Positions 47,126 to 53,410 of a stretch of 64,000 nucleotides of DNA are shown here, piece after piece. Both the position numbers and the translations under genes were made by a program. The stretch lies in assembly GCF_054482595.1 (NCBI RefSeq), contig NZ_CM137008.1; one strand, given 5' to 3'. Numbering within the stretch: position 1 is the stretch's first letter; each line of letters opens with the position of its first letter. The notes beneath the pieces were generated by a model that ran no database searches, was not told the DNA's origin, and was given only the letters and a program-made list of their open reading frames with translations.

Positions 47126-47195
47126 TGCTGTTGTCTGCTCCTGGTAAATGCTTTTTCCTGCACTATGACATAATTTTGCGTTGGGTACAGAGCAT

Positions 47196-48521
47196 TTAAC
47201 GCATACAAAAGCGGTCGTAATGGAAGTTTTGGCTGGCAATCCCATTTTCATATAACCCTTTGCTGAGCGCTTTGGCAAAACTCTGTGGGCCGCAAAACCA
47301 GAAATGGGTGTCACCTTTATTTGCTATTTTATCAGTAAGATAGTGCGACTGTAGGCGCTCACCTTTATGCGCATCAAGCAGATGCAGTGTGACACTGGCC
47401 TGGGCACAAAGTGAGGTAAGTTTATCAACATACCATGCATCCTCGCTTCGGCTGACGCAATACCAGAGATCCACAGGAACACGGGACGCGCCATGCTGGT
47501 TCAGATACTCAAGCTGGGCGATAAAGGGGGTAATGCCGATGCCTCCAGCTATCCATACCTGGCGGGAGCAAGGGAGAGTAAAATCAAACTTTCCCCATGG
47601 CCCTTCAACGAGAGCGGACTGGCCGATTTTTATCGAGGATGCCAGAGTCGAGGTATAATCCCCTAAATTTTTGATGGCAAAGCGCAACGTGTTCTTCTCT
47701 ATTGCATATGAAGCGATAGTAAAAGGGTGAGACTCTTTACTGTGTGCGAACGTTAAGAATGCAAACTGACCCGGAGAATAGTCGATGGCATGTTCCAGCT
47801 CCAGTATGACTTCGGTAATTTGTCCCGGATGGTTAACAATACTTTTAATGGTGGCCTGATGCTTGTTTTTATTACCGTTTAATTTCAGCAGCGAAATGAA
47901 AGCCACAAAGACGCCTGGGATAGTAATTAAAATTAATAAATACGCAGCAGGAGTTTCCCACCAATATGATTTAAACAGTGCAGTAAATACATGAAAAGCA
48001 ATTGCCAGATAAAAAACGGGGAACAAACGGTGAACAAGATGAAATAAATGATAGGGAACTTTTTTGCTTAGAGACACGAAAACCATCGCTATCATAATAA
48101 ACATTGCACATTCACCCGCTAACAATCCCGCATGAAGCCAATTTTCTTGTACTGGCGTCAGGTTAATATCAACGATTTTACCAGGGTGAGTAAGCCAGCC
48201 AAAGGCGACGAATAACTGGGGTAATTTTTCATCCAGCCAGTGGGCGAAAGCAAAAGCGATGGCGCATATTCCTGCCCACTTATGTAATCGCCATGCTTTA
48301 TCCAGACCGCCCAGCATCTTGTTAAGCCATGATGAACGCAACGATAAGCACATCGTCAGCGTCATCAGACACCACGCAAGGGTTCCCGTAAAAAAGAGTG
48401 TGTTTTGTCGAATGAACCATATTAGCGCGATTGGCTTTTCACGAAAAATATCGCCGGATGACAAAAAAATAATACATGCGACAAAGCAAACCAACGTACC
48501 TGTAAGATTAGCTTTTTTCAT
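47196..48521 (-). CDS. NOX/ferric-reductase-like membrane flavocytochrome (six TM helices plus FAD/NAD(P)H-binding domain)
   Basis: N-terminal hydrophobic half with His pairs H-x13-H ([15 protein letters not shown]) and H-x12-H ([14 protein letters not shown]); C-terminal half with HPFT flavin motif, GGIGITPF nucleotide motif and C-terminal CGP; AT-rich codon usage. Confidence 0.8.
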
Positions 48522-48583
48522 TTTTTTATTTCATTTTGGCAGCGGAGCATAGAACAGTTCCATGCTCCCATTAAATAGAGTGA

Positions 48584-48844
48584 TTATTTATAGAAAATCA
48601 CAGTGGCGTGGATATAATTTTTACCGGAGAAAGAACTGATGTAGTAATTGCTGGCTTGTAACTCTTCCGCTTTCTCTTTGATTTGGCTTTCAACGCCCGC
48701 TGGGTTGCTATTGTGTGTAGACATGCTCACTTTTGATAACTGTTCAAGATTATTGTCCGGTTTGTGTATCTCGGTTGCTGCAAATGCATGTCCTGTGAGA
48801 GTGCAAAGAAATAACGCGGTAAATAAATTTTGCTTAATAGACAT
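48584..48844 (-). CDS. Secreted DUF1471 (YhcN/BhsA-like) small protein
   Basis: 86-aa ORF with signal peptide (MSIKQNLFTALFLCTLTGHAFA) and DUF1471-like C-terminus (SFSGKNYIHATVIFYK); AAGGAG SD 7 nt upstream; 16 nt after the upstream stop. Confidence 0.75.
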   Translation of the reverse strand: MSIKQNLFTALFLCTLTGHAFAATEIHKPDNNLEQLSKVSMSTHNSNPAGVESQIKEKAEELQASNYYISSFSGKNYIHATVIFYK

Positions 48845-48860
48845 AATAACTCCTTTTATA

Positions 48861-49490
48861 TTAAACGTAATGATTAAATACTTGTGTAATAAGATCAGGG
48901 ATTTGCGCTAATGCATTTTGCTCGGCGAGTTCGCGTCCCGGTTGGGTTTTGTCGACACCTTCTGCACGTAAAATATGTGTATTGGTAATGCCCATTAATT
49001 TCAGCGTGGCTTGCAGATAACTTTCCTGATGATCCAGCGCCAGATGTGCTTCATCGCAATAGATACCGCCGCGCGTCGAGACAATAAACGTCGGTTTATC
49101 CTTCAGTAACCCAACGGCGCCTGCAGAGCTAAAACGAAACGTTAAACCAGCCTGACACACCTGATCTATCCAGGTTTTGAGGCCAGATGAAACGCTGTGA
49201 TTAATCATCGGCGCGCCAATAATGAGCACATCGCACGATGCCAGTTCATCAATAGCGGCGTGGATATCATTCACCTCCTGCTGAATTTGTGCGTTCTTGC
49301 ACTCTGCTTTATCGCAAAGCGCCAGAAAGGTTTCTTCACGCAAATGGGGCGGCGGCGTCAGGCCAACGTCGCGATGAATAATTGTGGCTTGAGGAAAGTG
49401 TTGGCAAAGCGCTTCTACCAGCGTCTGGCTTAATTTCCGCGAACTTGAATGCTTAAGCATTGGGCTACTGTCGATATGAAGAATTTTCAT
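48861..49490 (-). CDS. AzoR-family FMN-dependent NADH azoreductase / quinone reductase homolog
   Basis: 209-aa ORF (MKILHIDSSPMLKHSSSRKLSQTLVEAL...) with the AzoR/AcpD flavodoxin-like pattern; first gene of a three-gene minus-strand operon. Confidence 0.8.
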   Translation of the reverse strand: MKILHIDSSPMLKHSSSRKLSQTLVEALCQHFPQATIIHRDVGLTPPPHLREETFLALCDKAECKNAQIQQEVNDIHAAIDELASCDVLIIGAPMINHSVSSGLKTWIDQVCQAGLTFRFSSAGAVGLLKDKPTFIVSTRGGIYCDEAHLALDHQESYLQATLKLMGITNTHILRAEGVDKTQPGRELAEQNALAQIPDLITQVFNHYV

Positions 49491-49497
49491 GGGCTTG

Positions 49498-49518
49498 CTC
49501 TCATTTCTGCGATGAGAG
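49498..49518. promoter_or_regulatory. Perfect 7-bp inverted repeat in the divergent LysR/operon intergenic region
   Basis: CTCTCAT-N7-ATGAGAG, 8 nt upstream of the AzoR-like start codon; candidate LTTR operator or RBS-sequestering hairpin. Confidence 0.4.
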
Positions 49519-49590
49519 AAGTTTAACTGTTGTTTATATGGTGATTAAATAGACATAATTGAACTTCATTGTTGTGAAAATAGAACAATC

Positions 49591-50487
49591 ATGATCGACT
49601 GGAATGATTATTACTACTTTGCCCTGATTGCCGATGAAGGCAGCTACAGCCAGGCGGCGCTGCGTGCGGGCGTGTCGAAATCGGTATTAAGCCGACGAAT
49701 GGCTGCACTGGAGGAGCGCCTTGGCGTACGGCTTATTCAGCGAACTACGCGGCGTCTGGCCCTGACGGCGGCAGGCGAACAGTTTGCTGTCGAATGTCGG
49801 GCGCTGATGGCGCAGGAGGAACGGGCTAGAGCGGTGGTGATGGCCGCCCAGGAAAGCCCACAGGGAATGCTGCGCGTCAGCGCGCCGGTATTTATGGCTG
49901 AAACATGGTTTGGTGAGTTTGTCAGTGAGTTTATCGCCCGTTGGCCCCTGGCGAAGGTGCAACTGCTGGCAATTAATCGCCCGGTGGATATGGTCGCTGA
50001 AGGCATTGATATTGCGCTGGTTACGGCTTCCGGCGCGCTTGCTGACTCGACGCTGCATTATAAAAAATTACATACCCAGGCTGATATTTTAGTTGCCAGT
50101 TCTCAGTGGCTGGCCCGCCATCCGCAGGTGAAAGCTATTGAAGATCTTAACCACGTCGACGGGATCCTTCGGCTGGCGAACAATGGCGGGAGCCAGTGGC
50201 AATTAATTAATGGCGAACAGGAGATTACGCTGCAGCCTGAGGCGCGTTTGCAGTCAAATAACCTTCGCGTCATGCTGCAAGCAGTACTTGGTGGGAATGG
50301 CGTGGCGTTATTGCCTCAATTTGCCTGTAAACAGGGGCTTGCGAACGGTGAACTGGTGCGCCTGTTTGCACCGTGGAGCGGCATACCCAGACCGTTGTAT
50401 GCTTTATTTGCGGGGCGAAAGGGGATGCCTGCCATTGCGCGATATTTTATGGATGAGTTAACCACGCGGCTTGCCAACGGGGTCTGA
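49591..50487 (+). CDS. LysR-family transcriptional regulator, divergent from the redox operon
   Basis: 298-aa ORF with N-terminal HTH ([36 protein letters not shown]) and LTTR effector domain. Confidence 0.85.
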
Positions 50488-52879: not shown

Positions 52880-53018
52880 AAAGCCCTCACCGAAGCGAGG
52901 GCTTGAAGGAGAAGGGTTATGATGCGACTTGTCATCATACTGATTGTACTGTTACTCATAAGTTTCCCAGCTTATTAACAGTCAGTCTCAGGGGAGGAGT
53001 AATCCTCCCTTACCCTTA
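52880..53018 (-). ncRNA. Sib-type antisense sRNA (antitoxin), copy 1; boundaries approximate
   Basis: Minus-strand -35 TTGACA (53053-53048), 17-bp spacer, -10 TAATTT (53030-53025); transcript would run antisense across the ibs ORF; 3' end estimated from the usual Sib length. Confidence 0.45.
52919..52978 (+). CDS. Ibs-family type I toxin, 19 aa (variant copy, Pro17)
   Basis: Read by hand: ATGATGCGACTTGTCATCATACTGATTGTACTGTTACTCATAAGTTTCCCAGCTTATTAA = MMRLVIILIVLLLISFPAY*; SD GAAGGAG upstream; below the ORF-track size cutoff. Confidence 0.75.
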   Translation: MMRLVIILIVLLLISFPAY

Positions 53019-53271
53019 CTCACTAAATTAGGTTAAAGAATCAACGATGTCAATCAGGGCGATGCGGGATGTATCGCCCTGAACCGATCATTTGATAGAC
53101 ACTTCATCGCCCACGTTTACTGCCGTAATTAATCCCTTATCCCTGCAATGTGTGTCTGTCTTACATGACGTTTTACGAGTGCGCTCGAAGAAAAAATTTA
53201 AAGGTAGATCAATGCGTTGTGCTTATTTAAAGAGAGTTTACGATGGCAGGGCAGCATGGGGCTGTAACGGT

Positions 53272-53410
53272 AAAGCCCTCACCGAAGCGAGGGCTTGAAG
53301 GAGAAGGGTTATGATGCGACTTGTCATCATACTGATTGTACTGTTACTCATAAGTTTCAGCGCTTATTAACAGTCAGTCACAGGGGAGGAGCAATCCTCC
53401 CTTACCCTTA
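53272..53410 (-). ncRNA. sibC: SibC-type antisense sRNA (antitoxin), copy 2; boundaries approximate
   Basis: Same promoter-like elements as copy 1, shifted by 392 bp (-35 at 53445-53440, -10 at 53422-53417); serA-ygfA intergenic position corresponds to K-12 sibC/rygC. Confidence 0.45.
53311..53370 (+). CDS. ibsC: Ibs-family type I toxin, 19 aa (IbsC-like, Ser17)
   Basis: Read by hand: MMRLVIILIVLLLISFSAY*; same SD and context as copy 1; matches my recollection of K-12 IbsC. Confidence 0.75.
   Translation: MMRLVIILIVLLLISFSAY

Follow-up and report, generated by a model that had tools for sequence, protein, structure and literature searches.

Gene Content of the Locus

This report concerns a stretch of 64,000 nucleotides from contig NZ_CM137008.1 of NCBI RefSeq assembly GCF_054482595.1 (hereafter the window) and, within it, a minus-strand gene at positions 47196 to 48521 that encodes an NADPH oxidase (NOX)-like membrane protein. 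The open reading frame (ORF) is uninterrupted, starts with ATG, and is the longest possible frame, yielding 441 amino acids, while the plus-strand translation of the same interval is rich in stop codons. The gene region is 100% identical to that of Escherichia coli O157:H16 strain Santai, where RefSeq annotates the same coding sequence (CDS) as WP_021557189.1. The product is named "ferredoxin reductase family protein" in RefSeq and "putative dioxygenase beta subunit" in GenBank. An earlier reading of the DNA letters by themselves (the original prediction) had proposed a 441-residue product at this interval, with which both the ORF and the RefSeq CDS agree; the interval was right, although the minus strand went unstated. 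Two plus-strand ORFs (47389 to 47658 and 48259 to 48552) are without supporting evidence and were treated as by-products of the long minus-strand ORF.

We assign the gene, with a probability of roughly 0.85, to the SpNOX-type bacterial NOX/ferric-reductase-domain proteins, which are single-polypeptide flavocytochromes b of the inner membrane. "NOX" serves here as the name of an architecture and not of a proven function. The gene stands last in a predicted operon of three genes, AzoR-like, DUF1471, and NOX-like (Table 1).

Table 1. Coordinates of the NOX-like gene, its domains and key residues, and its neighbors in the window
Feature	Positions	Strand	Remarks
NOX-like flavocytochrome b CDS	47196..48521	minus	441 aa plus stop; RefSeq WP_021557189.1; Pfam, PDB, and fold evidence
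Ferric-reductase-type transmembrane domain, residues 1-215	47877..48521	minus	Pfam PF01794 on residues 45-174; AlphaFold2 model; hydropathy
FNR-like dehydrogenase domain, residues 216-441	47199..47876	minus	Pfam FAD_binding_8/FAD_binding_6/NAD_binding_1; FAD-binding beta-barrel and NAD(P)H-binding Rossmann-like lobe
H80 codon	48282..48284	minus	Proposed inner (cytoplasmic-side) heme ligand, TM3; SpNOX H69
H94 codon	48240..48242	minus	Proposed outer (periplasmic-side) heme ligand, TM3; SpNOX H83
H164 codon	48030..48032	minus	Proposed inner heme ligand, TM5; SpNOX H129
H177 codon	47991..47993	minus	Proposed outer heme ligand, TM5; SpNOX H142
FAD motif HPFTI, residues 265-269	47715..47729	minus	H265 and P266 invariant
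NAD(P)H motif GGIGITPF, residues 326-333	47523..47546	minus	G326, G327, I328, G329, P332, and F333 invariant
CGP motif, residues 410-412	47286..47294	minus	Invariant
F438, C-terminal aromatic, fourth residue from the end	47208..47210	minus	Invariant; presumed counterpart of SpNOX F397
DUF1471 (YdgH/BhsA/YhcN/RclB-like) protein, 86 aa	48584..48844	minus	Upstream of NOX-like gene; predicted Sec-type signal peptide (...GHAFA/ATE)
AzoR-like Flavodoxin_2 FMN-dependent NADH azo/quinone reductase, 209 aa	48861..49490	minus	First operon gene; Salmonella counterpart carries PF02525
Divergent intergenic region, 100 bp, 33% GC	49491..49590		Dyad at 49568-49589; candidate LysR operator
LysR-family regulator, 298 aa	49591..50487	plus	Divergent; 3' end survives in K-12 as yqfE pseudogene

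Domain Architecture and Predicted Fold

Pfam matches follow the order Ferric_reduct (2.5e-14), FAD_binding_8 (9e-8), and NAD_binding_1 (3e-7), where FAD is flavin adenine dinucleotide. No additional Pfam domain that would represent a regulatory module (EF-hands or a peroxidase domain) was found, and the transmembrane (TM) and dehydrogenase domains account for all 441 residues. Lacking a regulatory domain, the protein should be constitutively competent, as SpNOX is, with control presumably exerted at transcription. Compared with fungal FRE proteins, it shares Ferric_reduct and FAD_binding_8; NAD_binding_6 reached only E = 1.1, and NAD_binding_1 fits better. No NCBIfam model matched at its cutoff, and the partial matches obtained were to the dehydrogenase domain only. 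The best of them, BenC (7e-26), aligns profile positions 101 to 331 with residues 217 to 439 at 91 bits against a cutoff of 430, and the MmoC model also matched, as did those of Hmp and AntC, both well under their cutoffs. Because the BenC, Hmp, and AntC matches are confined to residues 217 to 439, the RefSeq name reflects the C-terminal module alone and under-describes a predicted six-TM diheme flavocytochrome. These same matches are what would recommend a soluble ferredoxin reductase or oxygenase electron-transfer component, as the database names imply. Such a protein is practically out of the question here, since the BenC-type matches leave out the 2Fe-2S ferredoxin domain, residues 1 to 215 make up a predicted six-helix heme-binding membrane domain, and no oxygenase genes adjoin the locus. 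A soluble reductase of the BenC/AntC type was thus ruled out by domain architecture.

The AlphaFold2 (AF2) model (predicted local distance difference test score, 87.6; predicted template-modeling score, 0.79) comprises six TM helices followed by the FNR-like domain, in keeping with the roughly six N-terminal helices claimed originally. The helices span residues 2 to 21, 33 to 60, 73 to 106 (TM3), 123 to 151, 157 to 184 (TM5), and 191 to 212. In a 19-residue hydropathy window, five of the six reach at least 1.6, while the His-rich TM3 peaks at only 0.93. Lys and Arg residues number 13 on the N terminus, loops B and D, and the post-TM6 linker versus 4 on loops A, C, and E, which argues for an N-in topology with the dehydrogenase domain in the cytoplasm. 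With this topology, H80 and H164 would ligate the inner heme and H94 and H177 the outer heme. The original prediction had placed His pairs with H-x13-H and H-x12-H spacing in two separate helices. Indeed, H80-x13-H94 lies in TM3 and H164-x12-H177 in TM5, so that both pairs fall within predicted TM helices rather than outside them. The FAD, NAD(P)H, and CGP motifs that it assigned to the C-terminal half are likewise present and conserved.

When the AF2 model was compared with known structures by Foldseek, full-length SpNOX was the top match (8qt6; E = 1.6e-25; TMq/TMt, 0.73/0.80), with NOX5, DUOX1, and NOX2 ranking next; the NOX-type fold anticipated originally is therefore supported. The dehydrogenase half alone superimposed on SpNOX dehydrogenase crystal structures with TM scores of 0.84 to 0.86 and a root mean square deviation of 2.2 to 2.7 Å. 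At the sequence level, phmmer against the PDB gave full-length SpNOX as best match (8QQ7, 8QT6, and 8QTA; 6e-26); FNR-superfamily reductases came next, along with human NOX5. The domain, sequence, and fold matches are far beyond chance.

Residue conservation was assessed in an alignment of 32 homologues (34 to 89% identity), in which 42 residues are invariant. Besides the four His residues, the invariant set takes in H265-P266, G326-G327-I328-G329, P332-F333, C410-G411-P412, F438, and R441 at the very C terminus, and conservation extends to a signature, GGLDK-x4-HKW, in cytoplasmic loop B. In E. coli Hmp, the residue aligned with F438 is the C-terminal Phe that stacks on the flavin (F390), and the same holds for the C-terminal Phe of NqrF. 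The spacing H-x12-H by itself is weak, nondiagnostic evidence for heme binding, and it recurs three times in the soluble half of the protein (at 231, 380, and 393). The two named pairs are meaningful because they lie inside predicted helices, are invariant in the 32 homologues, and align with the SpNOX heme ligands.

Relation to Characterized NOX and Ferric-Reductase-Domain Proteins

Hajjar et al. defined a large bacterial NOX family in 2017 by motif and topology filters (PMC5676040). The filters include an FAD motif H[PSA]F[TS][LIMV]; bis-His motifs of the form His-x12/14-His, at least 20 residues apart, in TM3 and TM5; and a single polypeptide in which three to seven predicted TM helices, with six expected, precede a C-terminal dehydrogenase domain (PMC5676040). 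We counted the x13 spacing inside the His-x12/14-His range, since the type member SpNOX itself has H69-x13-H83. The window protein passes all four motif and topology filters: it carries HPFTI at residues 265 to 269, an NAD(P)H motif GIGITP at 327 to 332, H80-x13-H94 in helix 73-106 with H164-x12-H177 in helix 157-184, and six AF2 helices with a concordant Pfam domain order. The four His residues align one for one with SpNOX H69, H83, H129, and H142 in the phmmer search of the PDB, and the SpNOX H69A-H129A and H83A-H142A variants had activity at background level (PMC5676040).

Four family members, AmNOX, EcNOX, PaNOX, and SpNOX, were cloned by Hajjar et al., and their Table S3 lists EcNOX as UniProt L2VL28 of E. 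coli strain KTE10 (PMC5676040). EcNOX was picked by the same motif filters, and its clone was expressed as a bacterial NOX candidate. EcNOX and the window gene are very probably one and the same, an identification that follows from frequency: the argP-linked type occurs in 247 complete E. coli genomes, whereas the one other type in E. coli is limited to three copies, all on plasmids. A cluster look-up for the common E. coli allele returned the UniRef representative A0A135PT36_ECOLX, not L2VL28, and the window allele differs from that common allele at 23 residues. Thus the architecture, the bacterial NOX family, and its occurrence in E. coli have all been published before, and the window gene is known in kind. 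The observation made originally is confirmed and its reading supported, but the novelty it implied was overstated, the family and its E. coli member EcNOX having been described in 2017 (PMC5676040). Full-text searches for EcNOX or L2VL28 found nothing further beyond that paper.

The window protein shares with SpNOX the single polypeptide, the six-TM ferric-reductase domain with H-x13-H in TM3 and H-x12-H in TM5, the fused FNR-like FAD/NAD(P)H domain, the aromatic residue fourth from the C terminus, and the absence of regulatory domains. It differs in being about 40 residues longer, mainly in the periplasmic TM3-TM4 loop (about 107 to 122) and the N-terminal region, in its operon context, and in its Gram-negative host, in which the outer heme would face the periplasm. 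Eukaryotic NOX/DUOX enzymes and the cyanobacterial csNOX5 have the same catalytic core and motif set (Foldseek E values, 1e-16 to 1e-19), whereas the window protein, at 15 to 20% identity, has no EF-hand or peroxidase domains, p22phox-type partners, or long extracellular loops.

E. coli MsrQ (YedZ), which operates with Fre and MsrP, is likewise a ferric-reductase-domain membrane heme protein that passes cytoplasmic reducing power to a periplasmic acceptor through an exposed outer heme. However, MsrQ consists of the ferric-reductase domain only and receives electrons from the separate Fre protein (PMC11031084), in agreement with the contrast drawn originally, whereas the window protein has a fused FNR-like domain. 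Quinol is an alternative electron source for MsrQ. In addition, msrP adjoins msrQ, while no msrP-like gene was found within 6 kb of the NOX-like gene and no molybdoenzyme gene nearby.

A Probable LysR-Linked Operon

The original prediction named structural elements that are all present but missed the conserved four-gene module to which the gene belongs. The three minus-strand genes are separated by gaps of 16 bp and 62 bp and are presumably cotranscribed. A perfect dyad, ATTGTT-N10-AACAAT (49568 to 49589), abuts the start codon of the divergent LysR gene and is kept in the Salmonella intergenic region; it is a candidate operator for the LysR-family regulator. The 62-bp spacer upstream of the NOX-like gene (48522 to 48583, minus strand) contains a hairpin, GGAGCAT-N11-ATGCTCC (48544 to 48568), with a 7-bp stem and no T-run, and a three-codon mini-ORF (ATG AAA TAA) stands directly upstream of the NOX-like ATG. 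GC content is 44% in the NOX-like gene, 39% in the DUF1471 gene, and 47% in the AzoR-like gene, compared with 56% in the LysR gene and 52 to 55% in the flanking core genes.

The DUF1471 protein matches the NCBIfam RclB model at 2.7e-6, and the module layout resembles that of RclABC, an E. coli operon for resistance to reactive chlorine: a cytoplasmic flavin oxidoreductase, a secreted DUF1471 protein, an integral membrane protein, and a dedicated regulator. The likeness is one of layout, and the proteins themselves differ. RclA is a flavoprotein of the pyridine-nucleotide disulfide family, RclC falls outside the ferric-reductase-domain proteins, and RclR, the regulator, belongs to the AraC type. 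The analogy is thus a lead only. The gene content favors the view that the AzoR-like/DUF1471/NOX-like operon may be an inducible redox module supplying electrons to targets in the periplasm.

Distribution and History in E. coli

Among 5,426 complete E. coli genomes, the NOX-like gene was found in 247, always on the chromosome, with at least 80% of the gene covered in 228. The claim that such a protein is unusual in E. coli was therefore borne out. At the argP-rpiA locus, coverage of the whole module reaches 80% or more in 232 genomes. Nearly all genomes (5,425/5,426) match the module region, but those beyond the 232 keep much less of it (3 to 11% in every one sampled).

The K-12 chromosome (locus L002, 3575 to 3700) was compared with window positions 47179 to 50294. 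On the argP side, homology ends 18 bp past the NOX-like stop codon; on the rpiA side, it resumes inside the LysR gene. Between these breakpoints lies a 62-bp, 90%-identical remnant of the 3' end of the AzoR-like gene (window 48887 to 48948). The K-12 pseudogene yqfE consists of the last approximately 190 bp of the LysR gene plus this remnant. The breakpoints and remnants indicate that an ancestor carried the module at the argP-rpiA locus and that a deletion later removed it. The module thus explains yqfE, which is its deletion scar, and about 95% of E. coli strains now lack it through deletion. Literature searches on yqfE, on the conserved module or the K-12 scar, and on DUF1471, DUF1924, or DHC linked to NOX-like proteins found nothing relevant in the papers covered.

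Between the window allele and the common allele, WP_001305829.1, there are 60 nucleotide and 23 residue differences, and all 23 substitutions lie outside the invariant positions. The ratio of nonsynonymous to synonymous divergence (dN/dS) between the alleles is 0.19, indicating purifying selection on the NOX-like gene; values are 0.06 to 0.12 for the other three module genes and 0 to 0.04 for flanking core genes. Synonymous divergence (dS) is about twice as high in the module (0.08 to 0.17) as in the flanking genes (0.06 to 0.07).

A second NOX-like type of 435 residues, 38% identical to the first, occurs in three of the 5,426 genomes, on plasmids only (NZ_CP148350.1, NZ_CP047380.1, and NZ_CP148340.1; locus L005, 6001 to 7308), where it adjoins IS66. 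Separately, the 90%-identity protein cluster of the NOX-like protein (P0001, P0002, and P0135) also lists ArgP regulators of many Enterobacterales. Their presence is probably an artifact of a chimeric or read-through representative (P0002, 371 aa), argP being the adjacent gene.

The Module in Other Bacteria

In Salmonella enterica, the four genes recur in identical order at a chromosomal site unrelated to that of E. coli. Identities to the window proteins are 71% for LysR, 71% for the AzoR-like reductase, 51% for the NOX-like protein, and 38% for DUF1471, and the intergenic DNA looks far more alike than the 51% NOX-like protein identity would suggest. Three further relatives (42 to 52% identity) keep LysR, Flavodoxin_2, and NOX-like genes without DUF1471, and DUF1471 was thus ruled out as an obligatory partner. 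In two of these three, of 42 to 44% identity, a resistance-nodulation-division (RND) efflux pump (MFP, ACR_tran, and OEP) lies downstream on the same strand (locus L007, 6474 to 11332; locus L094, 5482 to 9353), an arrangement that hints at a xenobiotic-response role. Two other relatives keep only the LysR gene of the module.

More distant relatives were sampled as 80 NOX-like loci (33 to 43% identity) from species-representative genomes. Neither the AzoR-like nor the DUF1471 partner was present near the NOX-like gene in these 80, which makes the module clade specific and no family-wide rule. About 27 of the 80 instead show genes for a DUF1924 monoheme cytochrome c and a DHC diheme cytochrome c, co-oriented with and followed by the NOX-like gene; upstream of them stand a divergent PepSY protein gene and an OmpR-type response regulator gene. 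Carriers include Rhodocyclales, Burkholderiales, Stutzerimonas, and others (e.g., L023, 3405 to 3896; L092, 3595 to 4032; and L068, 3348 to 3767). Because cytochrome c genes lie upstream in so many relatives, protein acceptors are plausible for the family. In Saezia sanguinis (locus L008, 2410 to 7243), two tandem NOX-like paralogues are flanked by genes for an Fe-superoxide dismutase and a VIT1 iron transporter.

Proposed Electron Path and Possible Physiological Roles

Homology to SpNOX suggests the following path for electrons. NAD(P)H would bind the cytoplasmic C-terminal FNR-like domain and pass a hydride to FAD, for which F438 would have to swing off the flavin; SpNOX F397 must likewise move aside for hydride transfer (PMC11564096). 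Single electrons would then cross the membrane from an inner heme b (H80 and H164) to an outer heme b (H94 and H177), and the outer heme would reduce an acceptor in the periplasm. For SpNOX, the structure papers state that physiological function and natural acceptor are unknown (PMC11564096; PMC11031084).

Several points weigh against reading the gene as a working SpNOX-type flavocytochrome b. Identity to SpNOX is only 22%, and the heme difference spectrum of cloned EcNOX was weaker than those of SpNOX and PaNOX, so that EcNOX was dropped from further study (PMC5676040). No Shine-Dalgarno sequence is recognizable before the NOX-like ATG, which, together with the hairpin described above, means that expression may be low or attenuated. 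Across the region, matches resembling promoters or terminators do no better than shuffled controls, and the transcription unit is therefore not defined by them. Some carriers have IS1 or IS5 (ISKpn26) insertions or truncations in the gene or module (NZ_AP024687.1, NZ_CP114227.1, NZ_CP098910.1, NZ_OZ546911.1, and NZ_LR890334.1), and decay of the module is ongoing. Such disrupted copies, along with the many E. coli strains that do not have the gene, indicate that it is dispensable. One could go further and regard the gene as a decaying remnant without current function in this strain, given the deletion of the module from approximately 95% of E. coli strains, the disrupted carriers, a dN/dS above that of the flanking core genes, and translation signals that look weak. 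We consider this very unlikely: the frame is full length and intact in 228 genomes, the dN/dS reflects purifying selection, all 42 invariant family residues are kept and allelic substitutions avoid them, and the whole four-gene module is intact in Salmonella too.

If the SpNOX-type flavocytochrome b is active, its acceptor could be of several kinds, O2 (yielding superoxide) being one possibility. As a true NADPH oxidase, the protein would reduce periplasmic O2 to superoxide for signaling, competition, or the priming of stress responses. Its architecture is that of SpNOX and the eukaryotic NOX enzymes, two NOX-like paralogues adjoin the Fe-superoxide dismutase gene in Saezia, and SpNOX consumes NADPH in vitro with O2 as acceptor (PMC5676040; PMC11564096). 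This role is nevertheless doubtful. The operon partners are a reductase and stress proteins, not proteins that handle reactive oxygen species. The eukaryotic O2-reduction center, which we take to comprise, in NOX2 and csNOX5, a His four residues after the outer ligand of TM3, an Arg in TM2, and a heme propionate, is apparently not conserved. In that assumed register, the +4 position after H94 is E98, a Glu in most of the 32 homologues and a His in one (by sequence register only), and R38, which lies where TM2 begins on the periplasmic side, is not among the invariant residues. SpNOX is also without the eukaryotic O2-reduction site, and its authors note that O2 may not be its physiological acceptor and that earlier assays by superoxide dismutase inhibition may have been artifactual (PMC11564096). 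An assimilatory ferric or cupric reductase feeding metal uptake, like the yeast FRE proteins, is a different option, in line with the Pfam Ferric_reduct domain, the name "iron reductase" given to Salmonella and other homologues, the VIT1 gene next to a Saezia paralogue, and the weak ferric reductase activity of SpNOX (PMC11564096). That activity was judged not physiologically relevant, however, with a kcat of 0.05 per s (PMC11564096). The module also contains no iron or copper transport gene, and its regulator is LysR-type rather than iron or copper sensing. The best Fur-box match in the operon regulatory regions is 12/19, which is at background level; the window holds 54 matches of at least 12/19 on one strand alone. 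We therefore regard metal assimilation as unlikely.

A transmembrane reductase of a non-O2 acceptor, whether redox-cycling quinones, dyes, other electrophiles, or a periplasmic protein, agrees best with the gene context, although we hold it at somewhat less than even odds. The NOX-like protein would act within a LysR-induced detoxification or repair module, with the AzoR-like reductase as its cytoplasmic arm. The divergent LysR gene, the Flavodoxin_2 reductase gene, and the NOX-like gene stay together in the nearest relatives, and the RND pumps downstream in two related loci are typical of xenobiotic-response operons. The DUF1471 neighbor is related to the stress proteins BhsA, YhcN, and RclB. 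A protein acceptor is suggested by the same-strand periplasmic c-type cytochrome genes (DUF1924 and DHC) upstream of the NOX-like gene in distant relatives, and SpNOX reduces cytochrome c directly, its outer heme being solvent exposed as in MsrQ (PMC11564096). On the other side, the case is built from gene context, three related modules do without the DUF1471 protein, for which no cofactor is known, and neither that protein nor the AzoR-like partner occurs in the 80 more distant relatives.

We tentatively propose a more specific version, in which the NOX-like protein would be a membrane electron conduit rather than an oxidase, in an undescribed LysR-controlled, periplasm-directed redox-defense module made up of the AzoR-like reductase, the DUF1471 protein, the NOX-like protein, and at times an RND pump; the bacterial NOX family may perhaps be wired to dedicated periplasmic partners encoded just upstream, which in about a third of the proteobacterial relatives sampled would be the c-type cytochromes DUF1924 and DHC. 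If this were true, natural carriers in E. coli and Salmonella would be the first system open to genetics in which to find the physiological acceptor of a bacterial NOX. What makes the locus interesting is less the architecture than the regulated operon, which is conserved, and its loss by deletion from the majority of E. coli strains, K-12 among them. Since this compact operon is shared by E. coli and Salmonella and missing from K-12, it lends itself to clean gain-of-function experiments in K-12 and to loss-of-function experiments in carriers. The gene is thus a tractable entry point to the in vivo role of bacterial NOX proteins.

Finally, elsewhere in the window, the RefSeq annotation places two copies of the type I toxin gene ibsC downstream of serA, at about 52919 to 53370 (locus L001, 11724 to 11783 and 12116 to 12175). 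The matching K-12 interval holds one ibsC/sibC pair.

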